DNA of 58,512 nt from Xanthobacteraceae bacterium (GCA_030037065.1 JASHRW010000099.1:1-58512), one strand, 5' to 3'. Positions 9,213-38,091 are shown, counted from the first letter of the stretch. The notes: generated by a model from the letters alone, not told the origin. Numbers and translations: made by a program.

Positions 9213-11402
9213 CTAGGGCTGCGCGCTGAAAGATTGCGCTGCGGATTGCCGGCGCAAATCGTGGTTCTTCACCGGCAACGAGCGGATGCGTTTGCCGGTG
9301 GCGGCGAAAATCGCGTTGCAAAGGGCCGGTGCCAGCGGCGGCACCGGCGGCTCGCCGACCCCGCCCCAAAAGTCGCCGCTCGGCACGATCATCGTCTCTA
9401 CCCTTGGCACGTCGTTGATGCGCAGCATCTGATAGGTGTCGAAGTTCGATTGCTCGGCGCCGCCGTCCTTGATGGTGATCTCGCCATAGAGCGCCGCCGT
9501 CAGCGCGTAAACGATCGCACCCTCGGTCTGCATTTCGATCGAGAGCGGATTGACGACGTGACCGCAGTCGAGGGCAGACACTACGCGATGCACGCGCACA
9601 CGGCCGTCTTCAACCGAGACTTCGACCACTTGCGCGCAATAAGAGCCGCAGGCCTCGTTCAGCGCGATTCCGCGAAAAACGCCAGCGGGAGGCGGGCTGC
9701 CCCATCCCGCTTTCTCGGCCGCGGCGTCGAGCACGGCAAGATTCTTTGGACTCTTGCGCAGCAGGAGCCGCCGGTAATGGTAAGGATCGATGCCGGCAGC
9801 GTTCGCCATCTCATCGACGAAGCCTTCCTTATAAAAGGCATTTTGCGTGTAATTGATCGCGCGCCAGACACCGAGCGGAACGGGCGTCCGCCGCACGACG
9901 TAATCGACCAGATAGTTCGGCACGTCGTACGGCATCTCCTCGGCGAGACCGCTCACAAAAGTATTGTCGATGAAACCCGAACTGAACCCGCGCAGAAGCT
10001 CGGCGACGAATGACGGTCCCGCCAGTCTGATCGACCACGCGATCGGCATACCGCCGGCGTCCAGTCCGGCGGCGAGGCGCGCCATACCGAACGGCCGATA
10101 GAGGTCGTGCTGAATGTCTTCCTCGCGCGTCCATACCAGCTTGACGGGCTGCTCCACCTCCTTGGCAATGAGCACCGCCTGCCGAACATATTCCTGTATC
10201 GTGCCGCGCCGGCCGAAGCCGCCACCAAGCAGTGTGCGATGGACCACGACGTTGTTGTCGGGGACTCCGGCGGCGAGCGCGGCGGTGGCGAGCGCGGTCG
10301 ACGCATCTTGCGTGGGGACCCAGATTTCGACGCCATCGGGACGCACATGCGCGGTGCAGGTCTGCGGCTCCATGGTCGCATGGGCGAGGAAGGGGACCGT
10401 GTAGTCTGCTTCTATCCGTTGCGCGGCGCGCGCAAAGCCGGCGGAAACGTCGCCGTCGGCACGACCGATCTGGGCCGGCGACGCGTCAAGGCCGGTGCGC
10501 ACAAGATCGTGGATGGCGGAGGTGGAGAGACTACCGTGATCGGCGTCGTTCCACGTGACGCGGAGCGCCTGCACCGCGCTCTTCGCTCGCCACCAGGAAT
10601 CGGCGATGATGGCGACCGCGTCCGGCATTCGAACAATGCGGCGCACGCCTTTCATTCCATGGATTGAGCTCTCGTCGACTGATTTCAGCGTTCCGCCAAA
10701 TACCGGGCATTGCATGATGGCGGCGTAGAGCATGCCGGGCAGCCGCACATCGATGGCGTAGATCGGCTGGCCGGTGATCTTGTCGAACACGTCGAGACGC
10801 TTCCGTGGCTTGCCGGCAAGTGTCCAATCGGCAACGGGCTTAAGTTTGACGCCAGTAGGAGGCTCGATCCTGGCCGCGTCGTCGGCGACCGCCCCAAAGC
10901 TCATCGTGCGGCCGCTCGCGGTGTCCGTGATCGTGCTGTTTTGCGCGCTGCATTGTGATGCTGGCACATTCCAGCGCGCCGCCGCGGCGGCGATGAGCAT
11001 TTCCCGTGCGGTGGCGCCGGCACGGCGCAAATAATCCTGAGATGATGCAATCGAGCGGCTCGCGCCGGTCGACAAGTCGCCCCAGATGCGACCACGGCGC
11101 AAATTCTCCGTTGGCGAGACGAACTCCGTGCGCACCTTGCCCCAGTCGCACTGCAATTCCTCCGCAACCAGCAGGGCGAGACCGGTCAGGGCGCCTTGGC
11201 CCATCTCGGCGCGCGCTATGCGGATCGTTACGAAATCATCGGGGGCGATCACCACCCAGCAGTTGATCTCGGACGCTCCGGCGGTAGCGGCCCGCGCCGA
11301 TTCCGCGCCGGTCGGCATGGCAAAACCCAGCGCAAGGCCGCAGCCCGCACCGGCGGTACCGATTAGAAATGCACGGCGATCAACTTCGCCGGCAGCTCTC
11401 AT
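9213..11402 (-). CDS. IorB-type xanthine-dehydrogenase-family molybdopterin-binding subunit with Tat signal
   Basis: A twin-arginine leader (DRRAFLIGTAGAGCGLAL) is present. The protein is 729 aa and its layout is typical of isoquinoline oxidoreductase beta / membrane-bound aldehyde dehydrogenase large subunits. A GGGGGAG ribosome-binding site lies upstream. There is no adjacent 2Fe-2S gene. Confidence 0.8.
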   Translation of the reverse strand: MRAAGEVDRRAFLIGTAGAGCGLALGFAMPTGAESARAATAGASEINCWVVIAPDDFVTIRIARAEMGQGALTGLALLVAEELQCDWGKVRTEFVSPTENLRRGRIWGDLSTGASRSIASSQDYLRRAGATAREMLIAAAAARWNVPASQCSAQNSTITDTASGRTMSFGAVADDAARIEPPTGVKLKPVADWTLAGKPRKRLDVFDKITGQPIYAIDVRLPGMLYAAIMQCPVFGGTLKSVDESSIHGMKGVRRIVRMPDAVAIIADSWWRAKSAVQALRVTWNDADHGSLSTSAIHDLVRTGLDASPAQIGRADGDVSAGFARAAQRIEADYTVPFLAHATMEPQTCTAHVRPDGVEIWVPTQDASTALATAALAAGVPDNNVVVHRTLLGGGFGRRGTIQEYVRQAVLIAKEVEQPVKLVWTREEDIQHDLYRPFGMARLAAGLDAGGMPIAWSIRLAGPSFVAELLRGFSSGFIDNTFVSGLAEEMPYDVPNYLVDYVVRRTPVPLGVWRAINYTQNAFYKEGFVDEMANAAGIDPYHYRRLLLRKSPKNLAVLDAAAEKAGWGSPPPAGVFRGIALNEACGSYCAQVVEVSVEDGRVRVHRVVSALDCGHVVNPLSIEMQTEGAIVYALTAALYGEITIKDGGAEQSNFDTYQMLRINDVPRVETMIVPSGDFWGGVGEPPVPPLAPALCNAIFAATGKRIRSLPVKNHDLRRQSAAQSFSAQP

Positions 11403-11688: not shown

Positions 11689-12666
11689 ATGAAGGTATTG
11701 GGCAAACTCGCAGTTGCCGCTCTGTTGGCAATCGCCTCTACCCTTGGTGTGCGGGCGCAGGCCTATCCGTCGCGGCCGATTTCGATCGTCGTGCCGTATC
11801 CGGCGGGAGGCGTTACCGACACGCTTGTTCGCCTGCTCGCCGAGCGAATGAAAAATTCACTCGGCCAGCCGGTCCTGACCGAGAATATGGGTGGCGCCTC
11901 GGGGACAGTCGGCGCGGCGCACGTCGCTCGAGCGGCGCCCGATGGCTATACGCTGTTGCTCGGCAATTCCGAGGCGTTCGTGCTGACGCCCGCCACGATG
12001 AAGCTGCCTTACAATCCGTCGACCGACTTCGCGCCGATCGCGCTATTGCCGAGCTATCCGTTCATCCTGGTGAGCACCAACGACGTGCCGGCGAAGACGC
12101 TTAAGGAGCTGATCGCCTGGATGCAGACAAATCCGGACAAAGTTCTGCAGGGGACCGTTGGCTCGGGCACCATGCAACAGCTCTGCGGTCTCTCGATCCA
12201 GCATACGGTTGGAGCCAAGTGGCAGCTTATTCCCTATCGCGGCGGAACGCCGGCGATGCAGGACATGCTCGCCGGACAGATCAATTTCATGTGCACCGCG
12301 AGCGGCAGCTTCCTGCCGCTGGTGCGCAGCGGGCAGATTCGCGTTTACGCGGTCACCGCAAAGAACCGCATGGAAGCAGCGCCGGGGATTCCGACCGTGG
12401 ACGAAGCCGGACTGCCCGGCCTCTACGTGTCGATATGGAACGCGCTGTGGGTGCCGGCAGGCACGCCGAAGGACATCATCGCCAAGCTCAATGCCGCCGC
12501 CAACGCGGCCATGGCCGATCCGACCTTCCACAAACGGATCGTGGACATGGGACTGGATATGCCGGCGAGCGACCAGCGCACTCCGGACGCGCTCGACGAC
12601 TTGCGCAAAGCCGATATCGCCAAATGGTGGCCGATCATCAAGGCTGCGGGACTGAAGGCGGAGTAA
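11689..12666 (+). CDS. Bug-family (TctC-like) substrate-binding protein
   Basis: A signal peptide is followed by YPSRPISIVVPYPAGGVTDTLVRL. This is the second orphan Bug gene in the window. Confidence 0.85.
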   Translation: MKVLGKLAVAALLAIASTLGVRAQAYPSRPISIVVPYPAGGVTDTLVRLLAERMKNSLGQPVLTENMGGASGTVGAAHVARAAPDGYTLLLGNSEAFVLTPATMKLPYNPSTDFAPIALLPSYPFILVSTNDVPAKTLKELIAWMQTNPDKVLQGTVGSGTMQQLCGLSIQHTVGAKWQLIPYRGGTPAMQDMLAGQINFMCTASGSFLPLVRSGQIRVYAVTAKNRMEAAPGIPTVDEAGLPGLYVSIWNALWVPAGTPKDIIAKLNAAANAAMADPTFHKRIVDMGLDMPASDQRTPDALDDLRKADIAKWWPIIKAAGLKAE

Positions 12667-12857
12667 TCAAGAAAAGACGCGCGCATCTCTGTTCGTATTG
12701 CCCGCGTCGGCCCGCCTTGCGGAGTACGGCTGGAGACTCTATTCACGATGGCGGGAACGCGTGGCGATCGCCGACCGGTTCGGTCTGCCGCCGCGCGCAC
12801 GATCGGGGAAAATCGGAAGCCGGTTTTTTGCCGGTTCATGCGCGCTTGAAAGAAATA

Positions 12858-13988
12858 ATGGAGAGCCAAATGGCCAAGAACGCGGTCGTTTCCGAGGACC
12901 TTGCCAGCAAGTTCAAGACCGAAAAGGAAACCCCATACACGCGTTGGGTCAAATCCGAAGGGCTCGACATCCTGCCATCCATTTACGTGCGTAATCTTCG
13001 GACCGTCGAACTGAAGCCCTGGGCGCGCCGCGGCGGCAACGCCGTGTTTCTTAACCACGATGCCTCGCGCACGTCGAACGATTGCCACGTCATGGAAATC
13101 CCGCCGGGAAAGAGTCTGAGCCCGCACCGGCAGCTCTACGAGGAGATGATTCTCGTGCTTTCCGGCCGCGGCTCGACCACGGTGTGTAACGACGCCGGCG
13201 CCCGGATCAGCTTCGAGTGGAATGAAGGCGCGCTGTTCGCCATTCCGCTCAATTGCCATCACCAGCATTTCAACGGCTCGGGCCGCGAGCCGGTGCGCTA
13301 TGTCGCGGTGACCAACGCGCCGCCGGTGATCAATCTGTACGAGGACGTCGATTTCGTCTTCAACACCAAATACGACTTCAAGGACCGCTTTTCCGGCGAG
13401 CCGGATTATTTCAGCTCAAAGGGCGAGCAAAAGGGCTTTCTGCTGACTACCAATTTCGTCCCCGATGCGGTCAACATTCCGCTGGTGACCGCGGCGGAGC
13501 GCGGCGCCGGCGGCGGCCACATTCGCTTCAACCTAGCCAAAGGCTCGATGAACAGCCATATCTCGCAATTCCCGATCGGCACCTACAAGAAGGCGCACGC
13601 GCACGGTCCCGGTGCCCACGTCATCGTACTCTCGGGCGAAGGCTTTTCGCTGATGTGGCCGGAAGGCGAGGAGCCGCAGCGCTTCGAATGGGAGGTCGGT
13701 ACCCTGATCGTGCCGCCCAACATGTGGTTTCACCAGCACTTCAATTCCGGCGCGACGCCGGCGCGCTATCTCGCTTTCAAGCACGAGGGCGTCGCCATCC
13801 GTAATGCGCAAGGTGTTCCCAAGGCCTGGATCAGCCGTCGCGTCGGCGGCGATCAGCTCGATTATATCGACGAAAAGCCGGAGATTCGCCGGCTGTTCGC
13901 GACCGAGCTTGCCAGGCGTGGCGTCGCGCCGCGCATGGATGCGGCCTACGCCAAGGAAATGGAGCAACTTGGGCTTAAGACGGCATAG
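12858..13988 (+). CDS. Bicupin (two-cupin-domain) protein, possible ring-cleaving or isomerising metalloenzyme
   Basis: I chose the internal ATG of ORF 12219..13988 (MESQMAKN..). The upstream part of that ORF overlaps the Bug gene. The duplicated cupin motif-2 reads PLNCHHQHFN and PPNMWFHQHFN. The C-terminal cupin motif-1 reads GTYKKAHAHGPGAH. Confidence 0.7.
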   Translation: MESQMAKNAVVSEDLASKFKTEKETPYTRWVKSEGLDILPSIYVRNLRTVELKPWARRGGNAVFLNHDASRTSNDCHVMEIPPGKSLSPHRQLYEEMILVLSGRGSTTVCNDAGARISFEWNEGALFAIPLNCHHQHFNGSGREPVRYVAVTNAPPVINLYEDVDFVFNTKYDFKDRFSGEPDYFSSKGEQKGFLLTTNFVPDAVNIPLVTAAERGAGGGHIRFNLAKGSMNSHISQFPIGTYKKAHAHGPGAHVIVLSGEGFSLMWPEGEEPQRFEWEVGTLIVPPNMWFHQHFNSGATPARYLAFKHEGVAIRNAQGVPKAWISRRVGGDQLDYIDEKPEIRRLFATELARRGVAPRMDAAYAKEMEQLGLKTA

Positions 13989-14006
13989 CGCGCCGTTGTA
14001 CATCGG

Positions 14007-14048
14007 CCGGACGCCATTTAGTTTGTGCCTTCGCTAAGTTGCGTCCGG
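14007..14048 (+). promoter_or_regulatory. Intercistronic hairpin ending 4 nt before the coxM-like start codon
   Basis: The arms are CCGGACGCCATTTAG (14007-14021) and CTAAGTTGCGTCCGG (14034-14048). They match at 13 of 15 positions. Confidence 0.45.
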
Positions 14049-14052
14049 GACA

Positions 14053-14922
14053 ATGAAACCAGCGACTTTCGACTATCACGCACCGCGACAGCTCAAGGAA
14101 GCCATCGAGCTCCTGGCGAAGCTGCCCAATGCCAAAATCTTGGCCGGCGGGCAATCGCTCGTGCCGATGATGAATTTTCGTTACGTGATCGTCGATCACC
14201 TGATCGATCTCGGCGGCCTCGATGAACTGCGCGGCATCACGCTCGGCAATGGACTCCTGCGCATCGGGGCCATGACCCGCCAGCGCGATCTCGAAGTGTC
14301 CCCCGAAATCGCCAAACATTGCCCGTTAATGTCGGAGGCTTTACGCCACGTCGGTCATCGACAGACCCGCAACCGCGGCACGATCGGAGGCAGTTTGGCG
14401 CACGCCGATCCGGCCGCGGAACTGCCGGCCGTGTGCGCGGCCTACGATGCGACCGTCCACGCCGTGAGCGTGCGCGGCATCCGCCAGATTCCATTCCGCG
14501 AATTTGCCGCGGGCTTCATGGCAACCGCGCTAAAGTCCGATGAAATGATCGCGGCGGTCGATGTGCCGATCTGGCGGCTCGGCCATGGTCATGGATTCCA
14601 TGAATTCGCCCGCCGCCAGGGCGACTTCGCCATCACCGGCGCTGCCGCGCTGCTCGATGTCGGCGTCGATAATGTGGTGCGGCGGGCGACGCTGACGCTG
14701 TTCGGTGTGACCGCTTCGCCGCTACGGGTCGAGGCGGCGGAATCGCGGCTCGTCGGGCAACCGCTCGATGCCGGCGCCATCCGCGCCGCGGCGGCGGCGG
14801 CATGGCTGATCGAGCCGATTTCGGATATCCATGCCGGCGGCGAGTACCGGCGTCACCTCGCGCAAGTTCTAAGTTCCCGCGCGCTCAATGACGCGGCGCG
14901 CCGGGCCGGCGTGACGGCCTGA
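14053..14922 (+). CDS. FAD-binding medium subunit of a xanthine dehydrogenase/CoxM-family molybdenum hydroxylase
   Basis: The start reads MKPATFDYHAPRQLKEAIELL..AKILAGGQSLVPMMNFR, and NRGTIGGSLAHADPAAELP is present. The protein is 289 aa, with no extra Fe-S insertion. Confidence 0.85.
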   Translation: MKPATFDYHAPRQLKEAIELLAKLPNAKILAGGQSLVPMMNFRYVIVDHLIDLGGLDELRGITLGNGLLRIGAMTRQRDLEVSPEIAKHCPLMSEALRHVGHRQTRNRGTIGGSLAHADPAAELPAVCAAYDATVHAVSVRGIRQIPFREFAAGFMATALKSDEMIAAVDVPIWRLGHGHGFHEFARRQGDFAITGAAALLDVGVDNVVRRATLTLFGVTASPLRVEAAESRLVGQPLDAGAIRAAAAAAWLIEPISDIHAGGEYRRHLAQVLSSRALNDAARRAGVTA

Positions 14923-14930
14923 GAGTCCAC

Positions 14931-15428
14931 ATGAGCAAACAGGGCACGCTCATAACGGTGAACGGCAAATCGTACGGCCGCGTCGTCGATGCGCGGCTTA
15001 CTCTTGCCGATTTCCTGCGCCATGAAATCAATCTCACCGGCACGCATCTCGGTTGCGAGCATGGCGTATGCGGCGCCTGCACGGTACTTGTCGATGGCCG
15101 CTCCGTCCGCTCATGCCTGATGTTCGCAGTGCAGGCCAACGGCTGCGAAGTGACCACGGTCGAGGGCCTTGCGCCCGACGGCAAGCTCTCGGTCCTGCAG
15201 CAGGCCTTTATCGACAATCACGGCCTGCAATGCGGATTTTGTACGCCGGGAATGTTGATCACGCTGACCGAATTGTTGCGCGAAAAACCGCAACCGAGCG
15301 AGCAGGACGTGCGCGAGGCGATTACCGGCAATCTGTGCCGGTGCACCGGCTACGCCGGCATCGTCAAGGCCGCGCTCGATGCGGCGCAGCGCCTGCGCAA
15401 CGGCGCCGGGAAAGCAGGGGCTCGTTGA
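14931..15428 (+). CDS. (2Fe-2S)-binding small subunit (CoxS-like)
   Basis: The two cluster motifs are CEHGVCGACTV and CGFCTPGMLI...CRCTGY. It starts 8 nt after the medium subunit. Confidence 0.9.
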   Translation: MSKQGTLITVNGKSYGRVVDARLTLADFLRHEINLTGTHLGCEHGVCGACTVLVDGRSVRSCLMFAVQANGCEVTTVEGLAPDGKLSVLQQAFIDNHGLQCGFCTPGMLITLTELLREKPQPSEQDVREAITGNLCRCTGYAGIVKAALDAAQRLRNGAGKAGAR

Positions 15429-17779
15429 TGGGCGTGAAACATTTCGGCGCCCGCGTCACGCGGCTCGAAGATCCGGCCTTGCTGGCCGGCCGCGGCCGTT
15501 TTGTCGACGACGTGAAGCTGCACGGCGTGTTGCACGCCTGTTTTGTACGTTCGCCTCACGCCCACGCCAAGCTTCGCGGCTGCGATTCGCGCGCAGCCTT
15601 GGTCATCCCCGGTGTTCATGCGGTGCTGACGGCGGAAGATTTGCCAGAATTGATGCGCGACCAGCCGTTGCCGCTCTTATTGCCAAATCCATCGCTTACG
15701 GCGGCTCGCACCCAACACGCGCTCGCACGTGACGAAGTGACTTATGTGGGGCAAGCGGTCGCAGTGGTGATCGCCGATACGCGTTACATTGCCGAAGATG
15801 CGGCGGCGGCATTGATCGTCCAATACGACGTGCTGCAGGCGACGTCCGACTGCCGCGCCGCCGCCGAGCATGGCGCCCCGCGCGCGCACAGCGATCTTGA
15901 TTCGAACGTCGCCTCCACGTTTCGCCTGGCCTACGGCGATACCGATTCCGCTTTTGCCGACGCCACGCACGTCTTCACCGAGGCTTTCTGGCAACACCGC
16001 GGCGGCGGTATGGCGATCGAGACGCGCGCGGTGCTTGCTCACCACGATCCGGTTTCCGATCTGCTGACCGTCTGGTCGGGAACGCAAACGCCGCATATTG
16101 GCCGGCGCGTGCTTGCCGATCTGCTCGGCCGCGATCTGCAATCGATTCGCATGATCGCCCCCGATGTCGGCGGCGGCTTTGGGCCGAAGGCGATTTTCTA
16201 TCCGGAGGAGGCGGTGATCCCGGCGGCGGCGCTGAAGCTCGGCCGGCCGGTGAAATGGATCGAGGATCGGCGCGAACATTTCCTCTGTGCGACGCAGGAG
16301 CGCGACCAACACTGGGAAGTCGCGATCGCCGTCGATGCGGAGGGAAAAATCCTCGGTCTGCGCGGCCGCATGCTGCACGATACCGGCGCCTTCGTGCCGT
16401 GGGGCATCGTCATGCCCTATATCGCGGCCTCGACCGTGCCGGGCCCCTACGTCGTTCCGGCCTATCAGTTCGATACCGTTGTTGTACTGACCAATAAGGT
16501 GCCGACGACGCCGGTGCGCGGCGCCGGCCGGCCGCAAGCGGTGTTCGCGATGGAACGGCTGATGGATCGCGTCGCCCGCGAATTGAATATCGATCGCGCC
16601 GAGGTGCGCCGCCGCAATTTCATCCAGCCCGATCAGATGCCTTACAAGGTCGGGCTGACATTCCGCGATGGCAAGCCGCTCATCTACGACAGCGGGGATT
16701 ACCCGGGCGTGCAGGAAAAGGCGCTGGGCCTTGCCGAATACGAAGATTTCCGCGAGCGGCAGAAAGCCGCGATCGAGCAGGGCCGTTTCATCGGCATCGG
16801 CCTCGCCAACTACGTCGAAGGCACGGGCTTGGGTCCATTCGAGGGCGTCACAGTGCGCATGCTGCCGAGCGGCAAGGTAGCGGTCGCGACCGGCGCCACC
16901 AACCAGGGCCAGGGCACGCGCACGACGTTGTCGCAGATCATTGCCGAACAGGTCGGCTGCCGCCTCGAAGACATTGTCATGACGCTCGGCGACACGGCCG
17001 CGATTTCCCAAGGGGTTGGATCTTTCGCCAGCCGCCAAGCGGTCAATGCCGGCTCATCCGCGCTCATTGCCGGTCAGTCGGTGCGCAAGCAGCTCATCGC
17101 GCTCGCCGCGCGTACGCTTGGCGTCAACGAAATCGACATTGAACTTGAAGACGGCATGGCAATGTCGCGGCGCGGAAACAAACCATCGGTCTCGTTCGGC
17201 GATCTGGCGCGGCTCGCGCAGGGAATTCCCGGCGTTTCGCTGCCGGCCGGCCAGGCGGCGGGGATCGAGCACACTGCCTATTACACGCCCTCGCAAGCGG
17301 CCTATTGCTCCGGCACGCACGTGGCCGAAGTGCAGGTCGACGCGATGACCGGCGGCGTCAAGGTACTGCGCTACACTGTCGCTCACGATGCCGGCCGCGT
17401 GATCAATCCGCTCATCGTCGACGGCCAGGTGCAGGGCGGCGTGGCGCACGGCATCGGCAATGCGCTGCTCGAATGGATGCGATACGACGCCAACGCGCAG
17501 CCGCTCACCACCTCGTTCGCCGATTACATGCTGCCGATGGCGACCGACGTGCCGACCTGCGCCATTGCCCATGTCGAGACCGTCAATCCGCTCAATCCAC
17601 TCGGCGTCAAGGGCGCCGGCGAGGGGGGAACCATCCCGGCACCGGCCGCGATCGTGGCGGCGATCGAAGATGCGCTCTCGCCGTTCGGCGTGCATTTTGC
17701 CGAAACGCCGCTCACTCCCGAACGCATCGTCGCCGCGATGCGCGCCGCCGGCGCTTACGAGAGATTATTTCCAGCATGA
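15428..17779 (+). CDS. Molybdopterin-binding large subunit (CoxL-like, not a form I CO dehydrogenase)
   Basis: I chose the internal ATG (MGVKHFGARVTRLEDPALLAGRGRFVDD); it overlaps the small-subunit stop by 1 nt. The active-site loop region reads PVRGAGRPQ rather than VAYRCSFR. Confidence 0.85.
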   Translation: MGVKHFGARVTRLEDPALLAGRGRFVDDVKLHGVLHACFVRSPHAHAKLRGCDSRAALVIPGVHAVLTAEDLPELMRDQPLPLLLPNPSLTAARTQHALARDEVTYVGQAVAVVIADTRYIAEDAAAALIVQYDVLQATSDCRAAAEHGAPRAHSDLDSNVASTFRLAYGDTDSAFADATHVFTEAFWQHRGGGMAIETRAVLAHHDPVSDLLTVWSGTQTPHIGRRVLADLLGRDLQSIRMIAPDVGGGFGPKAIFYPEEAVIPAAALKLGRPVKWIEDRREHFLCATQERDQHWEVAIAVDAEGKILGLRGRMLHDTGAFVPWGIVMPYIAASTVPGPYVVPAYQFDTVVVLTNKVPTTPVRGAGRPQAVFAMERLMDRVARELNIDRAEVRRRNFIQPDQMPYKVGLTFRDGKPLIYDSGDYPGVQEKALGLAEYEDFRERQKAAIEQGRFIGIGLANYVEGTGLGPFEGVTVRMLPSGKVAVATGATNQGQGTRTTLSQIIAEQVGCRLEDIVMTLGDTAAISQGVGSFASRQAVNAGSSALIAGQSVRKQLIALAARTLGVNEIDIELEDGMAMSRRGNKPSVSFGDLARLAQGIPGVSLPAGQAAGIEHTAYYTPSQAAYCSGTHVAEVQVDAMTGGVKVLRYTVAHDAGRVINPLIVDGQVQGGVAHGIGNALLEWMRYDANAQPLTTSFADYMLPMATDVPTCAIAHVETVNPLNPLGVKGAGEGGTIPAPAAIVAAIEDALSPFGVHFAETPLTPERIVAAMRAAGAYERLFPA

Positions 17780-18333
17780 ACGACACGCAGGCACAGACCG
17801 AGACCACGCCGTTCTGGCGCTTCTCGCTGCAATTTTACCGGCTTTCCGGCGTGTCCGACGCCTGCATCGCGCTACAGGACGATTGCGGCGTCGACGTCAA
17901 TCTTTTGCTGTTTCTGTTCTGGTTGGCGTCGGAGGGTCGAGCGCTCGCCGTCGAAGAGGTCAAAAAACTCGACAACAACGTGTGCACCTGGCGCGAACTG
18001 ACGATCGTTCCGATCCGCGACACCCGGCGCAAGCTCAAGGGCGCCCGTACCCTGGTCGACGCAGGAAGGCAGGAGGCTTTTCGCAATAAGGTGAAGGCCG
18101 TCGAGCTTGAGGCCGAGCGATTGCAGCAGGAGGCGCTGTACGCATTGACCCAGTCGGGGCCGCCGGGCAAGCCGGCCGACCCAAGCGCGGCGGCGCGCGA
18201 CAACGTTGCGGCTTACGAACGCGCCCTAGGCGCGACCTTCGCGAAGGGCGCGGCCGGTCTTCTTTTCCGCGCGTTCGATTCAATTCCACATCGTGGCCGC
18301 GCTGCGGCTGCTGCTGTTGCAGGGCAAGGGTAG
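17776..18333 (+). CDS. DUF2390 / TIGR02444-like protein of unknown function
   Basis: The ATG overlaps the large-subunit stop (ATGA). FWRFSLQFYRLSGVSDACIALQDDCGVDVNLLLFLFWLA matches my recollection of the DUF2390 N-terminal signature. It is about 185 aa. Confidence 0.6.
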   Translation: MNDTQAQTETTPFWRFSLQFYRLSGVSDACIALQDDCGVDVNLLLFLFWLASEGRALAVEEVKKLDNNVCTWRELTIVPIRDTRRKLKGARTLVDAGRQEAFRNKVKAVELEAERLQQEALYALTQSGPPGKPADPSAAARDNVAAYERALGATFAKGAAGLLFRAFDSIPHRGRAAAAAVAGQG

Positions 18334-18341
18334 GGACGCTC

Positions 18342-18950
18342 ATGGCCAAACATGCAGCGCGGCTGATCGTCGGCATATCCGGTGCTTCCGGCACGATCTA
18401 TGGCGTGCGGCTTCTGGAAATGCTGCGCGCCGCCGAAATCGAAACCCATCTGGTCATGAGCAAGTCGGCGGAGATGACGCTTGTCTACGAGACCGATCTC
18501 AAGCCCAAGGACGTGCGCGCGCTCGCCTCGGTCCACTATCCGATTTCCGACATCGGGGCCGCGATTTCGTCCGGCTCGTTTCCGACGATGGGTATGGTGG
18601 TCGCGCCCTGCTCGATCCGCACCATGAGCGAAATCGCCTCGGGGGTGACCGCCTCGCTGCTGTCGCGCGCGGCCGACGTGGTGCTCAAGGAGAAACGCCG
18701 CCTGGTGCTCGCCTTGCGCGAGACGCCGCTGCACGTCGGGCACCTGCGCAGCATGCTCACCTTGGCCGAGATCGGCGCCGTGGTCGCCCCGATCGTGCCG
18801 GCGTTCTACAATCGTCCGAAGACGGTCGACGACATCGTCAATCATACCTGCGGGCGGCTGCTCGACCTGTTCGGCATCGACACCGGCGTGGTCAAACGCT
18901 GGAAGGGCGGGAGGCCGGACGACGGACGACAGACGACAGACGACAGATGA
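18342..18950 (+). CDS. ubiX: UbiX-family flavin prenyltransferase (prFMN synthase)
   Basis: The motifs RLIVGISGASGTIYGVRLLEML and MVVAPCSIRTMSEIASGV are present. It is the only UbiX in the window. Confidence 0.9.
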   Translation: MAKHAARLIVGISGASGTIYGVRLLEMLRAAEIETHLVMSKSAEMTLVYETDLKPKDVRALASVHYPISDIGAAISSGSFPTMGMVVAPCSIRTMSEIASGVTASLLSRAADVVLKEKRRLVLALRETPLHVGHLRSMLTLAEIGAVVAPIVPAFYNRPKTVDDIVNHTCGRLLDLFGIDTGVVKRWKGGRPDDGRQTTDDR

Positions 18951-18954
18951 CAGG
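18927..18954 (+). repeat. Heptanucleotide tandem repeat (CGACAGA x3 plus a degenerate unit) spanning the ubiX stop codon
   Basis: The sequence is cgacaga cgacaga cgacaga tgacagg. It encodes the non-conserved UbiX tail ..DDGRQTTDDR*. Confidence 0.7.
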
Positions 18955-19005
18955 GTAAAATCTAGGGCAGTGGCCTTGCCGCTCTATAATCATCCGTCGT
19001 CTGTC
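18935..19005. repeat. Imperfect inverted repeat flanking a 39-bp AT-richer core between ubiX and the next gene
   Basis: The arms are GACAGACGACAGATGA (18935-18950) and TCATCCGTCGTCTGTC (18990-19005), matching at 15 of 16 positions. Further GC-rich matching lies outside the arms. The core contains TATAAT (18985-18990). Confidence 0.6.
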
Positions 19006-19042
19006 CTCCGCCCTCCGTCCTTCATTCTAAAGGAACCCCACC

Positions 19043-19429
19043 ATGGACCAGAAACGCTACGAGATCGGACTTGCCAAGCGCAAACAGGTGCTTGGCGAAG
19101 CCTATGTGGATCGCGCGCTTAACAATGTTGATGACTTCAACCGCGACTTTCAGCGTATCCTCACCGAATATTGCTGGGGCGAGACCTGGGGCGACGAGAC
19201 GCTTAAGCCGCGCGAGCGTTCCATTCTCAACCTCGGCATGATCGCGGCGCTCGGCAAGATGGAAGAGTTCGCCACCCACGTGCGCGGCGCGCTCAACAAC
19301 GGGCTCACACCGAACGAGATCCGCGCTGCGCTCACTCAGGTCACGATCTATTGCGGCGCGCCGATCGGCGTCGATTGCTTTCGCGTAGCACGGCCGATCA
19401 TCGCCGAGCATGTGAAAAGCAAGAAATAG
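19043..19429 (+). CDS. Carboxymuconolactone decarboxylase family protein (PcaC-like, AhpD fold)
   Basis: EYCWGETWGDETLKPRERSILNLGMIAALGKMEEFATHVRGALNNGLTPNEIRAALTQVTIYCGAP resembles gamma-CMD proteins. It is 128 aa. Confidence 0.8.
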   Translation: MDQKRYEIGLAKRKQVLGEAYVDRALNNVDDFNRDFQRILTEYCWGETWGDETLKPRERSILNLGMIAALGKMEEFATHVRGALNNGLTPNEIRAALTQVTIYCGAPIGVDCFRVARPIIAEHVKSKK

Positions 19430-19435
19430 TCGGGC

Positions 19436-21094
19436 ATGCTCGACCAGCCGGACAAAGAACGCGGCAGCGGCCAAAAGGCGGGCCCGCCGCTCGACTTCCA
19501 GGAGCATCTGCACCGGCTCGAAGCCGAGGGACTGCTCACGCGAGTCGAGCGGCCGATCAACAAGGAAACCGAGCTGCATCCGCTGGTGCGCTGGCAGTTT
19601 CAGGGCGGGCTTGCCGAGGACGAGCGGCGCGCCTTCTTGTTCACCAACGTTGTCGATGCCGCAGGACGCCGCTATGACATCCCGGTCGCTATCGGCGCGT
19701 TGGCGGCGTCGGCGCGCATCTATGCGGTCGGCATGGGGCGTCCTGTCGACGAGATCGGCGACGCCTGGATGCACGCGATCGCCAACCCGATTCCACCCGT
19801 CGAAGTGACAGCAGCGCCCTGCCAGCAGGTCGTCATTACCGGGGAGGCGCTGCGGGCGCGAAACGGCGGGCTGAAGACGCTGCCAGTGCCGATTTCGACG
19901 CCCGGTTATGACGCGGCGCCGTATCTCACTGCGACGCTGTGCATCACCGAGGATCCGGAAACCGGCATCCGCAACATGGGCACATACCGCGCCGCGCTGA
20001 AGGCCACCGACCGGCTCGGCGTCCGCATGTCGGCGCGGCCCGGCGGCGCCGGCGGTTATCTGCACTGGCAGAAATACCGCAAGTCGAAAAAGCCGATGCC
20101 GGCCGCCATCGTGATCGGCTGTGCGCCGGTGGTGATGTTCACCGGGCCGCAAAAATTGCCGATCGATTGCGACGAGATGGCGGTCGCCGGCGGACTTGCC
20201 GGCGCGCCGATCCGCGTGGCCAAGGCCGCGACCGTGAATCTGCATGTGCCGGCCGACGCCGAGATCGTGGTCGAGGGTGTGATCGACCCCGAGCTTTTGG
20301 AGCCGGAAGGGCCGTTCGGCGAAAGCCACGGCCATGTCGCGCTCGAAGGCTTCAACATGTCGATGCAGGTCACCGCGATCACGCGCAAGCGGTCGCCGGT
20401 CTGGGTCTCGATCTTAAGCGAAGTGACGCCCTCCGAATCGAGCGTGATGAAGCGCGTCGCCTACGAGCCGCGCTATCTCGCCTATTTGCGGGATTCGCTC
20501 TCCATCAAGGGTGTGCGCCGCGTGGTCATGCACGAAGCGCTGACCAATTTGCGCAAGGTGATGTTCGTACAATTTGCTGCCGGTACACCGCGCACCGAAA
20601 TCTGGCGCGCGCTGCACGGCGCATCGAGCTTGCAGGCCGATATCGGCAAATACGTTATCGCGGTGAGCGAGGACATCAATCCGGAGAATCCCGACGCGGT
20701 GTTCTGGTCGCTTGCCTATCGCGCCAATCCGATCGAGGACGTGCATATCTCGCCGTATCGTTCCGAGGGGCACGGACCGAAATCGGGCGGGCCGCACGAG
20801 GACTCGACCATGCTGATCGATGCCACGCAGAAGGAACCCGACCCGCCGATCTCGCTGCCCAAGCGCGAATTCATGGAACGGGCGCGGGCAATCTGGGACG
20901 AGCTTGGCCTGCCGAAGCTTACGCCGCGCGAGCCGTGGCATGGCTATTCGCTCGGCGACTGGGATTCGGTCTGGGACACCTATGCGGAGCGCGCGGTGCG
21001 CGGGCAATGGGAAGAGTCCGGCAAGGAAACCTTCGCACGCCGTCGCGGCGGGCTCATCCCGGAGACGCCGGTGAAGAGTGTGAAGGAAGAATAG
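19436..21094 (+). CDS. UbiD-family (prFMN-dependent) decarboxylase, paralog 1
   Basis: It is 552 aa. UbiD core features include NMGTYR and the catalytic-Glu region EPEGPFGESHGHV. It starts 6 nt after the CMD-like gene. Confidence 0.85.
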   Translation: MLDQPDKERGSGQKAGPPLDFQEHLHRLEAEGLLTRVERPINKETELHPLVRWQFQGGLAEDERRAFLFTNVVDAAGRRYDIPVAIGALAASARIYAVGMGRPVDEIGDAWMHAIANPIPPVEVTAAPCQQVVITGEALRARNGGLKTLPVPISTPGYDAAPYLTATLCITEDPETGIRNMGTYRAALKATDRLGVRMSARPGGAGGYLHWQKYRKSKKPMPAAIVIGCAPVVMFTGPQKLPIDCDEMAVAGGLAGAPIRVAKAATVNLHVPADAEIVVEGVIDPELLEPEGPFGESHGHVALEGFNMSMQVTAITRKRSPVWVSILSEVTPSESSVMKRVAYEPRYLAYLRDSLSIKGVRRVVMHEALTNLRKVMFVQFAAGTPRTEIWRALHGASSLQADIGKYVIAVSEDINPENPDAVFWSLAYRANPIEDVHISPYRSEGHGPKSGGPHEDSTMLIDATQKEPDPPISLPKREFMERARAIWDELGLPKLTPREPWHGYSLGDWDSVWDTYAERAVRGQWEESGKETFARRRGGLIPETPVKSVKEE

Positions 21095-21105
21095 GTCACA
21101 GCGCC

Positions 21106-21561
21106 ATGCTCGTCTTTTTGCTCGCACTGCACCTGCTCGCCGCCATCTTCTGGGTCGGCGGCATGGCGTTCGCCTACTGGATGCTGCGCCCGGCCGCGGG
21201 CCCGCTCGATCCGCCCATGCGGCTGCCGTTGTGGCGGCGAGTGTTCGCTAGATTCTTGCCCTGGGTGGGCGTCGCCATCGTGGTGCTGCTCGGCTCGGGC
21301 TATGCCATGCTGGCCAAATATTTCGGCGGCTTCGCCGCCGCGCCAACTTACGTCAACGTCATGCAGGGCTTGGGCTGGCTCATGGTGCTGCTCTATCTGC
21401 ACCTTATCTTCGCGCCATGGAAACGCCTCCGTGCCGCGCTCGATCAGAATGCACTGCTCGACGCGTCCAAGGCGCTGAACCAGATCCGCATGCTCGTGGC
21501 GATCAATCTCGCGCTCGGCATCATTGTCGTCATTGTTGGTGGTACCGGGAGATATTGGTAG
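21106..21561 (+). CDS. Small CopD-like integral membrane protein (4 predicted TM)
   Basis: I chose the internal ATG of ORF 19939..21561 (MLVFLLALHLLAAIFWVGGMAF..). The HLLAAxFWxGG motif is CopD-like. It is the last gene of the plus-strand operon. Confidence 0.55.
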   Translation: MLVFLLALHLLAAIFWVGGMAFAYWMLRPAAGPLDPPMRLPLWRRVFARFLPWVGVAIVVLLGSGYAMLAKYFGGFAAAPTYVNVMQGLGWLMVLLYLHLIFAPWKRLRAALDQNALLDASKALNQIRMLVAINLALGIIVVIVGGTGRYW

Positions 21562-21564
21562 CCG

Positions 21565-21669
21565 ACGTCATTCCGGATTGCCACGACAGCGGCAAATCCG
21601 GAATCCATATTCGCTGACCTGTGTTTATGGATTCCGGGCTCGCGGCTTTCAGCCGCGCCCCGGAATAAC
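21565..21669. repeat. REP-like nested palindromic element, same family as 36334-36465
   Basis: The blocks are CGTCATTCCGG ... CCGGAATCCATA ... TTATGGATTCCGG ... CCGGAATAAC. It fills the convergent gap between the CopD-like and ThDP-enzyme genes. Confidence 0.8.
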
Positions 21670-21670
21670 A

Positions 21671-23446
21671 TCACCGCGGCCGCACTACCGTATCGACCAA
21701 AGCCGGCTTGCCGACTTTGACCTGGGCGATGGCGCGGCGGAGCGCCGGCGCGATATCGGCTGGTTTTTCAATCGGGCCTTCGGCGTACCAACCCATGCCC
21801 TTGGCGATGGTGGCGAAGTCGGGCTCGGGACCGGCGATGTCTTGCGCGATATAGGCGCGCTCGACCGGCGTACCGCGGAAATTCGCCACGCGAATCTGGT
21901 GCTCCCAGTCGTTGTAATAGGCGCGGTTGTTGTACATGACGATCAGCATCGGGATGTTGTTCTTCGCCGCGCTCCACAGCGCGCCGGCGTCGAACAAAAG
22001 GTCGCCATCCGGCTGAATGTCGACGACAAGGCGCCGCGCGTCGCGGTGCGCCAGCGCCACGCCGAGCGAGGTGCCGATCTGCGTGCCGGTGCCGAGCGCC
22101 TGGCCGCAGTGGCGGTAAGACTTGTCGAAGTCCCACAGCTTGTAGCACCAGTCCTGCAGATTGGCGCCGGTCAGCACCCAGTCCTCGCTTCCGATCTCGT
22201 TCCAGATTTCGCTCGCCAACCGCGGCAGCGTGGTCGGCAGTCCGTCCCAATCCTTTTTCGCCTCCTCGGCCCATTTCGCAAACAGGGCGTCATGCTTTGA
22301 GGCGACAAGTTTGGTGCGTTCGGCGATTTTGTTCGCCAGTGCGGGATCCTTGCTGATGCGCTCGCGGCATAGGCGCGTCAGTTCGGGAATGGCGGTCAGC
22401 GTGTCGCCAAGGACGCGCAGTGCGCAGGCCGGCATGCGCGCATAGTCCATCGACCATTTGCTTAAATTGATCTCGCCAAAGCCGATCTCGATCATCTCGC
22501 AGTGCGGCGGGTAATGCGGCACCACCTGACGCTTGGTGCGGTCGTTGAAATGCGTCGACTTCTCCCAATCGCGGGTGTCCAGCGTCAGGATCAGATCGGC
22601 GTCGCGAAAGATTTCCTTCTCGCACGACAGATTAAGCTTGTGGCGGTTCGGAAAGTTGAGCCGCGCATGCACGTCGAAGACGGCGGCGCCGACCGTTTCG
22701 GCGAGCGCCACCAGATTGTCGAAGCCGCCTTCGCTGCGCGCCACATACTCGGCCATCAGCACCGGGTATTTCGCCGCCAGCAGGCGATCGGCGACCTCGG
22801 CGAGCGCGATCGGGTCGGCTGCCATCGGTACCGGCACCTTGTTGTCGGTTGGTTTGGGCAGCGCCACGCTGCGGGTGAGCGGCTGCTCCTGCAGCCAGGC
22901 GTCGTAGCACATGTAGATCGGGCCCTGCGGCTCGGTCATCATCGCCGCGTAGGCGCGCGCGAAGGAATCGGGCACGCCCTCGATGCTCGCGGGCTGATAA
23001 TCCCATTTGACGTAATGACGGAGCTGCTCGCCGTTGACGTTCGCGGTGTGAATCCAATCGATGAACGGCCGGCGGCGGCTTTCGTCCATCGGGCCGGTGG
23101 CGCCGATCACGAAGATCGGGCAGCGGTCGATATAGGCGTAGTAGATGCCCATGGTGGCGTGCAGCATGCCGACCACGTCGTGCACGATCGCCACCATCGG
23201 CCGGCCGGTCGCCTTGGCGTAGCCGTGGGCGATCTGCACGGCGATCTTCTCGTGCTGGCAGAGCAGGAGCGGCGGCTGATTGCCGCCGTAATTGACCAGC
23301 GAGTCATGCAGTCCGCGGTAGCTCGCACCGGGATTGAGCGCGATATAGGGAAAGCCGTAGTGCTTGATGAGATCGACGATGATGTCGGATTGCCAGGCTT
23401 TTTTGGCGTAGCTTGCTTGCGCCTCCGGGTTGGTGACGTCATTCAT
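21671..23446 (-). CDS. Thiamine-diphosphate-dependent enzyme (acetolactate synthase/benzoylformate decarboxylase superfamily)
   Basis: It is 591 aa. The N-terminal pyrimidine-binding domain reads ..ALNPGASYRGLHDSL...CQHEKIAVQIAHGYAKATG. The C-terminal ThDP motif reads PDGDLLFDAGALWSAAKNNIPMLIVMYNNRAY. Confidence 0.8.
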   Translation of the reverse strand: MNDVTNPEAQASYAKKAWQSDIIVDLIKHYGFPYIALNPGASYRGLHDSLVNYGGNQPPLLLCQHEKIAVQIAHGYAKATGRPMVAIVHDVVGMLHATMGIYYAYIDRCPIFVIGATGPMDESRRRPFIDWIHTANVNGEQLRHYVKWDYQPASIEGVPDSFARAYAAMMTEPQGPIYMCYDAWLQEQPLTRSVALPKPTDNKVPVPMAADPIALAEVADRLLAAKYPVLMAEYVARSEGGFDNLVALAETVGAAVFDVHARLNFPNRHKLNLSCEKEIFRDADLILTLDTRDWEKSTHFNDRTKRQVVPHYPPHCEMIEIGFGEINLSKWSMDYARMPACALRVLGDTLTAIPELTRLCRERISKDPALANKIAERTKLVASKHDALFAKWAEEAKKDWDGLPTTLPRLASEIWNEIGSEDWVLTGANLQDWCYKLWDFDKSYRHCGQALGTGTQIGTSLGVALAHRDARRLVVDIQPDGDLLFDAGALWSAAKNNIPMLIVMYNNRAYYNDWEHQIRVANFRGTPVERAYIAQDIAGPEPDFATIAKGMGWYAEGPIEKPADIAPALRRAIAQVKVGKPALVDTVVRPR

Positions 23447-23518: not shown

Positions 23519-23971
23519 TCAGGCCGCGCCGGCCGCGCGATGGATCGCTGCGCGGATGCGTTGATATGTGCCGCAGCGGCAAATATTGGTGATCGCTGCG
23601 TCGATGTCGGCATCGGTCGGCTTGGGCTTTTGTTTCAACAGCGCGACCACCGCCATGATCATTCCGCTCTGGCAATAGCCGCATTGCGGCACGTCGAGAT
23701 CGAGCCAGGCTTGCTGCACCGGGTGCAGCTTGCCGTCCTGTGCCAGCGCCTCGATGGTGGTAATCGGCCGGACGCCGACTTCACCGATCGGCACTTGGCA
23801 CGATCGTGTGGCGATGCCGGCAAGGTGAACGGTGCAGCAGCCGCATTGGGCGATGCCGCAGCCGTATTTCGTGCCAGTGAGCCCGATCGCGTCGCGCAGC
23901 ACCCAGAGCAAAGGCGTATCGGGCTCGACATCGACCTCATAGGCTCTGCCGTTGACGGACAGCGTGATCAT
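23519..23971 (-). CDS. IorA-type (2Fe-2S)-binding small subunit
   Basis: The motifs are [29 protein letters not shown] and [13 protein letters not shown]...[10 protein letters not shown]. It is 150 aa. No Mo subunit is adjacent; it lies 73 nt upstream of the ThDP enzyme gene. Confidence 0.85.
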
Positions 23972-29316: not shown

Positions 29317-30138
29317 TCACACGAACGCCCGCTGTTTCCACGGGATCAGCACACGCTCTGCCCAGTTCACGCCGCGATTAAGTAGCACCGCAAGCGCGGC
29401 GATGACGATCAGCGGCGCAAAATATTTGGCGAGCGACAGCGTCTCGCCGTAGAACTGGAACATATAGCCGATACCGGTAGCGACGATCAGCAATTGGCCG
29501 ACGATGATGCCGACCAGCGCGCGGCCGACCGCGATGCGCAGTCCAGCGAAGATGTAGGGCAGCGCCGAGGGCAGCACGACGAGGCGGAGGATTTCGCGTT
29601 TCGTGCCGCCGAGCGAGCGCGCCACCTCGACCAGAAAACTGTCCGCTTCCTTGGCACCGGCCTCGACGGTGAGCAGTTGCGGGAACACCGCCGAGACGAA
29701 GACGAAGATGACCAGCGTCAAATTGCCGACGCCGAACCAGGCGATGAACAGCGGCAACCAAGCAATGTTGGGGATCGACCAGAACACGAAGATATAGGGA
29801 TCGAGCACCCGGGCCGCGGGACGGAAAATGCCGAGCACGAGCCCGACCGAGGTGCCAACAATGAAGGCGATGACGAGCCCCACGGCGAACGGCCAGACCG
29901 TCTGGCCGGTAGCGCGGATCAGCTCTCCCGATGCGGTGAGCTGGACGAAGGCGACAAGGACTTTCGCCGGCGCCGGCAGGATGATCGGCGGCACGTTCAT
30001 GCTCACCAATTGCCAGACCGCCAGAAATACCACGATCGAAACGGCGCCAACGAGATACTGGTTGCCGCCGATGACGGCGACGGCGGACTTGCCGTTCTTC
30101 GGCGGCGTTCCCGGGAGCATATTGCTGATTTCGGTCAT
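29317..30138 (-). CDS. ABC transporter permease (NitT/TauT / SsuC-like family)
   Basis: Six TM segments are predicted. The EAA-type loop reads VEVARSLGGTKREILRLVVLPSALPYIFAGLR. It overlaps the ATPase stop by 4 nt. Confidence 0.8.
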   Translation of the reverse strand: MTEISNMLPGTPPKNGKSAVAVIGGNQYLVGAVSIVVFLAVWQLVSMNVPPIILPAPAKVLVAFVQLTASGELIRATGQTVWPFAVGLVIAFIVGTSVGLVLGIFRPAARVLDPYIFVFWSIPNIAWLPLFIAWFGVGNLTLVIFVFVSAVFPQLLTVEAGAKEADSFLVEVARSLGGTKREILRLVVLPSALPYIFAGLRIAVGRALVGIIVGQLLIVATGIGYMFQFYGETLSLAKYFAPLIVIAALAVLLNRGVNWAERVLIPWKQRAFV

Positions 30139-30908: not shown

Positions 30909-30963
30909 GAAAAGCGGACTCGAAACAAATCTTTGCCGCGAATGCCCGGCGGGCCGCGCGAGC

Positions 30964-32091: not shown

Positions 32092-32222
32092 GTTACCCTC
32101 CCGAATTCGCGTGTCCTGCGGGTGTCCTATCAGGCAACCCGTGCCGGCCATGTCTGGCGCAGCCAATCGAGCGTTTCGGCCGCTTTTTTACCCTCGGAGA
32201 ATGGGCGGGGCCATGCGGCAGG

Positions 32223-38065: not shown

Positions 38066-38091
38066 TGCATAGATTTCTAAGTAATTCCTGC

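Follow-up and report, generated by a model that had tools for sequence, protein, structure and literature searches.

The described systems that come closest to the locus considered here, an operon at positions 12858-21561 of a 58,512-nt stretch of DNA from a Xanthobacteraceae bacterium (GCA_030037065.1 JASHRW010000099.1:1-58512; 'the window' below denotes this whole stretch), combine a UbiD-family decarboxylase with a molybdenum hydroxylase. The hmf cluster of Cupriavidus basilensis HMF14 possesses a UbiD/UbiX decarboxylase and a three-subunit molybdenum hydroxylase of the xanthine dehydrogenase (XDH) family and employs them in heteroaromatic acid catabolism, HmfFG being the decarboxylase of 2,5-furandicarboxylic acid (FDCA) and HmfABC the furoyl-CoA dehydrogenase. 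The lumazine/pterin cluster I of Cupriavidus sp. LA-1 (LuDH, DHLI, UbiX and XCDC; PMC12391406) likewise shares with our locus a water-derived hydroxylation by a molybdenum enzyme and a UbiD enzyme that depends on prenylated flavin mononucleotide (prFMN), takes a carboxyl group off the ring and is accompanied by UbiX. Single components have further relatives, for instance the VdcBCD/AroY hydroxyarylic acid decarboxylases, which are UbiX-dependent UbiD enzymes of aromatic acid catabolism, and the gentisate and salicylate 1,2-dioxygenases, which share a bicupin architecture. Searching the literature for these gene families in combination brought up no relevant paper, and no characterised cluster of this composition was found. 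The first-pass annotation of the window, made by a model from the sequence alone, had not recognised the gene order from any characterised cluster, and indeed the hmf, lumazine, dipicolinate and protocatechuate pathways all fail to fit it. We propose, with a probability of about 0.55, that the locus is a catabolic operon of uncultured soil Xanthobacteraceae that acts on a (hetero)aromatic carboxylic acid.

The operon consists of nine open reading frames, and Pfam and NCBIfam bore out every family and enzyme class first assigned to them:

12858-13988 (likely 12870-13988), plus strand, bicupin (Pfam Cupin_2)
14053-14922, plus strand, FAD-binding medium subunit (M) of CoxM/XdhB type (Pfam FAD_binding_5 and CO_deh_flav_C)
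14931-15428, plus strand, small subunit (S) of CoxS type with two [2Fe-2S] clusters (Pfam Fer2 and Fer2_2)
15428-17779, plus strand, molybdopterin-binding large subunit (L) (Pfam Ald_Xan_dh_C and MoCoBD_1/2)
17776-18333, plus strand, DUF2390/TIGR02444 protein (PF09523 and TIGR02444)
18342-18950, plus strand, UbiX flavin prenyltransferase (NCBIfam NF004685)
19043-19429, plus strand, PcaC-like protein of the carboxymuconolactone decarboxylase (CMD) family (Pfam CMD)
19436-21094, plus strand, UbiD-family decarboxylase of 552 aa (three UbiD Pfam domains)
21106-21561, plus strand, CopD-like small membrane protein (weak Pfam CopD match, 34.5 bits)

The spacings in gene order are 64, 8, -1, -4, 8, 92, 6 and 11 nt (gaps of 6-92 nt and two overlaps), in agreement with the earlier description of nine tightly spaced genes on one strand. 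The S stop codon overlaps the L start in TGATG at 15426-15430, and the L stop codon overlaps the DUF2390 start in ATGA at 17776-17779, both exactly where they had been placed. GC content is even throughout the region.

A search for this gene neighbourhood in other genomes had been suggested together with the first-pass annotation. Our scan with UbiD, using one genome per species, yielded 224 relatives, and the best 80 of these were used for locus mapping with the window proteins; all 80 are metagenome-assembled genomes, mostly of Xanthobacteraceae with a few Acidobacteriota (~72% identity). Within this set bicupin-M-S-L-DUF2390-UbiX-CMD-UbiD is found with its order unchanged in 24 species-level Xanthobacteraceae genomes, and the complete nine-gene set reappears with its neighbours in a 7.2-Mb assembly. 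Repetition of the eight-gene order in 24 species is far beyond chance, and the sequence comparisons indicate a real operon of uncultured soil Xanthobacteraceae that has been vertically conserved. Eighteen species in the same set possess bicupin-DUF2390-UbiX-CMD-UbiD with the M-S-L cassette precisely absent. In the UbiD tree the form with M-S-L makes up the basal branches and the form without it comprises one derived clade and one isolated case; hence the cassette is ancestral and was lost later. Since the derived clade dropped M-S-L yet kept the rest, the molybdenum step seems to be peripheral. A CopD-like gene lies between UbiD and the following gene for a thiamine pyrophosphate (TPP)-dependent enzyme in 11 of 36 related loci, while 14 loci have a gap of at most 164 bp that leaves no room for it; CopD-like is therefore an optional passenger outside the conserved unit. 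The CMD-UbiD spacing, by comparison, has a median of 12 nt over 61 loci.

The UbiD clade is also found beyond the Xanthobacteraceae, with orthologues of 65-67% identity in Rhizobiaceae, 55% in Paraburkholderia and 72% in Acidobacteriota. The Rhizobiaceae carry theirs on large plasmids, in Sinorhizobium fredii (NGR234 among others), Neorhizobium, Phyllobacterium and Rhizobium jaguaris. In Neorhizobium petrolearium two XDH-family large subunits flank UbiD, and M, S, CoxG, UbiX, TIGR02444, a TctC-type carboxylate receptor and a TPP enzyme are present as well; the NGR234 cluster has the same layout. The acidobacterial order is a lactate-permease-like transporter, UbiD, an unknown gene, CoxG, S, L and M. 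The molybdenum subunits of both groups are only 28-37% identical to the M-S-L of the window, so that different hydroxylases were recruited to the same UbiD clade, and because UbiD orthologues thus adjoin non-orthologous molybdenum hydroxylases in Rhizobiaceae and Acidobacteriota, the link between the two enzymes is functional on comparative grounds. In other Alphaproteobacteria UbiD is followed by TctC alone or stands divergent to a 72%-identical L subunit. Altogether the clade is repeatedly linked with XDH-family molybdenum hydroxylases, TctC receptors and the TPP enzyme in three lineages. Of the earlier view that the nine genes form one unit, the functional coupling of UbiX/UbiD with a molybdenum hydroxylase is thus strengthened, while the membership of CopD-like (11 of 36 loci) and the constancy of M-S-L (missing in 18 genomes) did not stand. 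Among uncultured soil bacteria, many Xanthobacteraceae and Acidobacteriota possess the clade, and its repeated pairing with molybdenum hydroxylases points to a new soil degradation route for ring-shaped acids. Its presence in culturable rhizobia (S. fredii NGR234, N. petrolearium and N. galegae) makes the pathway directly testable.

The same loci could also be read as a mosaic of co-located but independent modules, in which DUF2390-UbiX would supply prFMN to three UbiD genes, M-S-L would be a mobile hydroxylase cassette acting on a substrate of its own, and the bicupin and the TPP enzyme would form a further module for yet another substrate. The window does contain three UbiD genes, one of them an orthologue of phthaloyl-CoA decarboxylase, and no second UbiX homologue was found in it; moreover, M-S-L is cleanly missing from the 18 genomes, and CopD and TctC vary between loci. 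In Phyllobacterium a 38%-identical bicupin homologue occurs with a 65%-identical TPP orthologue, TctABC and genes for a EutA-like protein and an NAD(P) oxidoreductase, all without UbiD, and from this co-occurrence the bicupin and the TPP enzyme are probably functionally linked. However, independent modules would hardly be expected to hold their order and very short gaps, two overlaps included, over 24 species, nor CMD and UbiD to keep their close spacing over 61 loci, and the UbiD clade is independently tied to molybdenum hydroxylases in two other lineages. We therefore consider a mosaic unlikely and retain the reading as one catabolic operon.

A second association concerns the DUF2390 protein, which exceeds the cut-offs of both its family models (PF09523 109 against 25; TIGR02444 106 against 48.3). 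We searched 72,556 plasmids with tblastn and inspected one example from most of the organism groups that gave a DUF2390 match. DUF2390 was found in 64 plasmid records, all from Alphaproteobacteria, and what follows applies to these alphaproteobacterial members. In each of the 11 plasmid loci inspected, which represent 9 locus types, both UbiX and UbiD lie within 8 kb of it. The arrangements are as follows:

Paracoccus denitrificans PD1222: HutC-UbiD-UbiX-...-TIGR02444
Sinorhizobium meliloti: HutC-UbiD-UbiX, with TIGR02444 ~4.5 kb off
Brucella anthropi pOANT03: UbiD-UbiX-TIGR02444
Novosphingobium aromaticivorans pNL1: TIGR02444 with VdcC/VdcD, UbiX outside the stretch shown
Sphingobium fuliginis: TIGR02444 with VdcC/VdcD and UbiX
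Dinoroseobacter shibae: TIGR02444 overlapping UbiX and adjoining UbiD
Pseudohalocynthiibacter: TIGR02444 with UbiD and UbiX
Agrobacterium vitis: TIGR02444 with UbiD and UbiX
Neorhizobium and NGR234: TIGR02444 in the rhizobial UbiD/XDH-L cluster
Phyllobacterium: TIGR02444 adjoining UbiD, judged by coordinates

The neighbouring UbiD enzymes are of several types, namely VdcC-type, a ~440-aa UbiD located 3' of HutC-type regulators, and the clade of the window. Only 422 of the 72,556 plasmid records contain a UbiD-like gene, and the probability of chance proximity is therefore negligible. TIGR02444 is absent from the three ubiquinone-type UbiTUV-UbiD-UbiX loci that were opened on rhizobial plasmids. 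The AlphaFold2 (AF2) model of the window protein is all-helical and confident (pLDDT 87, pTM 0.83), and comparison of this fold with the PDB gave no match (best E 2.3, TM <=0.26), nor did a search of the PDB with the sequence profile. A diverse family alignment displays invariant W14, Y21 and D40 together with a P-x-R-x-x-R-x-x-x-K stretch and a K-x-x-E-x-x-x-E stretch. A kinship with CMD/AhpD proteins was rejected (hhalign probability 0.1, no PDB match by sequence or fold), and a literature search on DUF2390/TIGR02444 found nothing relevant in the library that was covered. We suggest the alphaproteobacterial DUF2390 proteins as candidate accessory factors of prFMN decarboxylase systems. Many UbiD enzymes, which are sought after as reversible (de)carboxylases to make and break aromatic acids, are hard to activate outside their host as prFMN fails to mature, and conservation beside catabolic UbiX/UbiD only makes DUF2390 a concrete and testable candidate for the missing helper. 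More tentatively, and with the odds slightly against us, DUF2390 might be a third component of catabolic UbiX-UbiD systems, serving in the making, maturation or delivery of prFMN or in regulation of the decarboxylase, and the UbiD clade might define a new pathway for an abundant heteroaromatic acid of soil.

The UbiD of the window contains the N-terminal, Rift-related and C-terminal domains PF20695, PF01977 and PF20696, all above cut-off, and its score of 202 with TIGR00148 (cut-off 245) marks it as a divergent member. The best solved relative is HmfF (141 bits). In the alignment with HmfF (6h6x) the motifs GIRNMGTYR (RN.G..R) and EGPFGE are intact, and in line with Fdc1 we take them to be the catalytic Arg/two-Glu (R-E-E) network. 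At two HmfF positions the window protein differs: H296 aligns with Ser, and R304, which presumably binds the distal carboxylate in HmfF, aligns with Tyr. H296/297 has been reported as the residue that sets furan specificity in HmfF (PMC7976604). The gene belongs to an uncharacterised clade of predicted prFMN-dependent decarboxylases. It is also distinct from VdcC, whose NCBIfam model gives it 157 against a cut-off of 650, and the small subunit VdcD is absent from the operon, although sphingomonad VdcCD loci share TIGR02444 with it. UbiX, the flavin prenyltransferase that makes prFMN, surpasses both its models (NF004685 254.8, cut-off 188; TIGR00421 237.7, cut-off 108.9).

With HmfF as the best solved UbiD relative, one could regard the locus as a divergent pathway for 5-hydroxymethylfurfural, FDCA or furoate, in which UbiD/UbiX correspond to HmfF/G, M-S-L to HmfABC, and a CoA ligase and an enoyl-CoA hydratase encoded 13-18 kb downstream to HmfD/E. 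Such an AMP-forming ligase and a hydratase are indeed present in the window, and in a published hmf gene survey one Rhodoplanes strain stood out by hmfA-like genes in an atypical context (PMC8091172); this strain may be a relative of the window lineage. However, the match to HmfF is distant, the residues related to FDCA specificity are replaced, and the subunit order M-S-L differs from the canonical hmfABC(DE) reported in the same survey (PMC8091172). The operon itself has no CoA ligase, hydrolase or enoyl-CoA hydratase gene, and the ligase and hydratase of the window flank the phthaloyl-CoA decarboxylase orthologue instead. The bicupin, CMD, DUF2390 and TPP enzyme of our locus moreover have no hmf counterpart. 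A variant of the hmf pathway is therefore very improbable.

The molybdenum hydroxylase is encoded as a complete set, with Pfam domains confirmed for the FAD, 2x[2Fe-2S] and molybdenum cofactor (Moco) subunits; both cysteine motifs are visible in the S translation and the C-terminal GAGEGG Glu motif in that of L. M scores below every NCBIfam equivalog cut-off. Against solved structures, L matches quinoline 2-oxidoreductase (Qor) and 6-hydroxypseudooxynicotine dehydrogenase best (455-465 bits), with a mycobacterial CoxL at about the same score. Qor and 6-hydroxypseudooxynicotine dehydrogenase have the same L/M/S architecture, but the likeness is at the generic family level, CoxL matches just as well, and their pathways lack UbiD and UbiX. 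Form I CoxL proteins carry the active-site loop AYxCSFR. An assignment of L to aerobic CO dehydrogenase of this form was rejected because its loop is PVRGAGR (VRGAGR) rather than CSFR, and because its scores are 496 versus 991 for TIGR02416 and 817 versus 950 for NF040766.

The same combination of a molybdenum hydroxylase with UbiX/UbiD would fit a lumazine or pterin pathway, with the molybdenum enzyme as lumazine dehydrogenase and UbiD as xanthine-8-carboxylate decarboxylase, and variants of that cluster have been reported in Rhizobiales (PMC12391406). However, the amidohydrolase-2 alpha/beta pair of DHLI, the GTPase that is said always to accompany it (PMC12391406) and the pterin deaminase are not among the Pfam-annotated genes of the 58.5-kb window, which has the bicupin and CMD instead. 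We also sought an XCDC orthologue among the UbiD matches on rhizobial plasmids, where the three loci opened were all ubiquinone clusters (UbiTUV-UbiD-UbiX). A lumazine variant thus seems highly unlikely. The dipicolinate (dip) pathway was rejected too, as it is reportedly independent of Moco genes and starts with the O2-dependent monooxygenase DipD (PMC11472048), unlike the logic of the window. The same holds for the protocatechuate branch that involves PcaC: the CMD protein scores 136.3 with TIGR02425 (PcaC), under the cut-off of 155.7, and the cluster has no PcaB/PcaD, cycloisomerase or enol-lactonase.

The bicupin carries HQHFN in both domains, as first noticed, and the duplication is real: H135, H137, F138 and N139 as well as H292-N296 are invariant across 24 close homologues. 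The C-terminal cupin displays an HxH...H (3-His) metal motif. The family, which is uncharacterised, comprises ~370 clusters at 50% identity (E<=1e-30). The single sequence gave no dioxygenase match in the PDB and no match to gentisate dioxygenase in NCBIfam, whereas the family profile found gentisate 1,2-dioxygenase 3bu7 as its best PDB match (E 5e-13, one domain only), with the HxH...H ligands aligned; the two nevertheless probably belong to separate families. The AF2 model (pLDDT 65) shows generic bicupin similarity only. An identity as oxalate decarboxylase was rejected, with generic fold likeness (TM 0.45) and no sequence match. The start codon proposed at 12858 needs revision, as this ATG lies inside a GGAGAG Shine-Dalgarno sequence that related loci share. 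Most homologues, moreover, have a length of 372-376 aa and start with MAK, so that ATG 12870 is the most likely start.

Variation at the bicupin end was observed in several relatives. A EutA-like ATPase gene (ethanolamine ammonia-lyase reactivase family), for which no homologue was found in the window, adjoins bicupin homologues in Xanthobacteraceae that lack M-S-L as well as in Phyllobacterium (locus L086, 11229-12734). It lies directly 5' of the bicupin in at least one M-S-L-less locus, L052 (5348-7120), and L025 has an equally long gene there; no ethanolamine lyase is encoded nearby in L052 or L086. One database protein (P0004) reads in frame from the bicupin into DUF2390 and is cut off at its end; this may be a genuine fusion, from a relative that lacks M-S-L, or else an artefact of sequencing.

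Taking these results together, we return to a catabolic operon for a (hetero)aromatic carboxylic acid, for which an N-heteroaromatic or dicarboxylate substrate is plausible. From the observed gene content, synteny and associations across lineages we infer every chemical step that follows. The acid would be taken up through a TctC-dependent transporter. The M-S-L enzyme would add a water-derived hydroxyl group to an electron-poor ring carbon, either before or after decarboxylation, and UbiD would remove a ring carboxyl group with prFMN made by UbiX. DUF2390 may assist UbiD as an accessory factor, for instance in cofactor maturation or hand-over. The bicupin could then cleave or rearrange the activated ring via its 3-His metal site, and the PcaC-like protein and the TPP enzyme might process the carboxylated or 2-oxo-acid product.

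Several observations weigh against this proposal. The gene content names no substrate, and no enzyme of the operon attains an NCBIfam equivalog cut-off, the models exceeded being the generic UbiX-family ones and TIGR02444. One clade (18 genomes) does without the M-S-L cassette, and the nearest plasmid homologue of L (52%, Variovorax) sits in a CoA-transferase/thiolase cluster, that is, in a CoA-thioester context. Neither bicupin nor CMD is present in the clusters of rhizobia and Acidobacteriota with the same UbiD, the bicupin resembles dioxygenases only remotely, and its model has no more than moderate confidence. Finally, no regulator, cycloisomerase, lactonase or hydrolase was found within the operon, and with no cycloisomerase, lactonase or hydrolase to follow ring cleavage the earlier impression of a complete-looking pathway is unfounded.

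Four genes on the two sides of the operon may also be relevant:

9213-11402, minus strand, IorB-like molybdopterin subunit (MoCoBD_1/2) without an adjacent small subunit, divergent from TctC
11689-12666, plus strand, TctC/Bug-family periplasmic carboxylate receptor (Pfam TctC), 191 nt 5' of 12858 and 203 nt 5' of 12870
21671-23446, minus strand, TPP-dependent enzyme with three TPP domains, convergent with the operon
23519-23971, minus strand, orphan IorA-like 2Fe-2S protein (Fer2 and Fer2_2), directly upstream of the TPP gene

The unit as first delimited was too narrow in this respect, for two conserved genes, those of the TPP enzyme and the orphan 2Fe-2S protein, fall outside 12858-21561, as does TctC, which is specific to the lineage. 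The TPP enzyme is conserved at 83-93% identity in most related loci, and a homologous minus-strand 2Fe-2S gene follows the cluster in nearly all of them, those without M-S-L included. TctC is found upstream of the operon only in the closest relatives of the window (six loci), while TctC genes flank orthologous UbiD in other Alphaproteobacteria too; the receptor is likely the uptake component in the sublineage of the window, judging from its position and family. Copies of the IorB-like gene, 75-78% identical, occupy the same position in four related loci, and other loci have a contiguous IorA-IorB pair beyond the TPP gene (for instance L081). The IorB-like subunit may therefore partner the orphan 2Fe-2S protein ~12 kb away across the operon.

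The best matches of the TPP enzyme are NF006203 and benzoylformate decarboxylase (BFDC), both far under cut-off (BFDC 143 bits versus 493), and this likeness allows a further reading in which the pathway trims the side chain of an aryl glyoxylate. The TPP enzyme would convert Ar-CO-COOH to Ar-CHO, the molybdenum enzyme would oxidise the aldehyde to Ar-COOH, UbiD would strip the carboxyl group and the bicupin would cleave the ring. Consistent with this order of events, the TPP gene is a conserved neighbour both here and in the rhizobial UbiD cluster, M, S and L all score well against the NCBIfam models of molybdenum-dependent glyceraldehyde dehydrogenase, and other TIGR02444/UbiD loci pair UbiD with aldehyde dehydrogenases. 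However, the TPP gene is convergent and not co-transcribed, its match to BFDC is distant, and by phmmer L scores somewhat higher with heterocycle hydroxylases (465 bits) than with the archaeal aldehyde enzyme (377 bits). Moreover, the two L subunits in rhizobia suggest two ring hydroxylations, and the M-S-L-less clade retains both TPP enzyme and UbiD. Aryl-glyoxylate trimming is in our judgement quite doubtful, and hydroxylation of the ring by M-S-L remains the step that we prefer.

Promoter and terminator scans of the operon region gave results at or below shuffle expectation, an Rfam scan of the bicupin leader found no element and no riboswitch, and a palindrome 5' of the bicupin (TTCATGCGCGCTTGAA) is not conserved across 43 related loci. 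A motif that is conserved ~40-55 nt 5' of the bicupin start in twelve related loci (TTCGCTAAGATCG) does not occur in the window; it could serve as an operator or as part of a promoter. A GC-rich hairpin without a T-run (GACGCGCGCA...TGCCCGCGTC; window 12676-12708) lies 10 nt 3' of the stop codon of TctC, whose transcription it may attenuate or set apart from that of the operon. At the other end, nested inverted repeats (ATTCCGGA/TCCGGAAT; window 21569-21666) lie in the 109 nt that separate the CopD-like gene from the convergent TPP gene, and they may represent a bidirectional terminator or an element like the repetitive extragenic palindromes.

Further UbiD genes were noticed both in the window and elsewhere. 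The close orthologue of phthaloyl-CoA decarboxylase is encoded at 36467-38143 on the minus strand (PDB 8pmk/8oz5; E 5e-273, 910 bits) without an adjacent UbiX, and beside it are the AMP-forming CoA ligase and the enoyl-CoA hydratase (34797-36332 and 38713-39510, both on the plus strand). The third UbiD-family gene (33199-34728, minus strand; best PDB match 7pda, E 5e-101) is the first in a series of minus-strand genes, the next ones being those for a DUF5996 protein, a 400-aa open reading frame without assignment and an ABC transporter (32223-33164 and 29317-32166). In two alphaproteobacterial loci (L063 and L077) a second UbiD paralogue, 54-60% identical and followed by UbiX, is located a few kb from the orthologous UbiD, and L077 possesses a DUF2390 gene as well.

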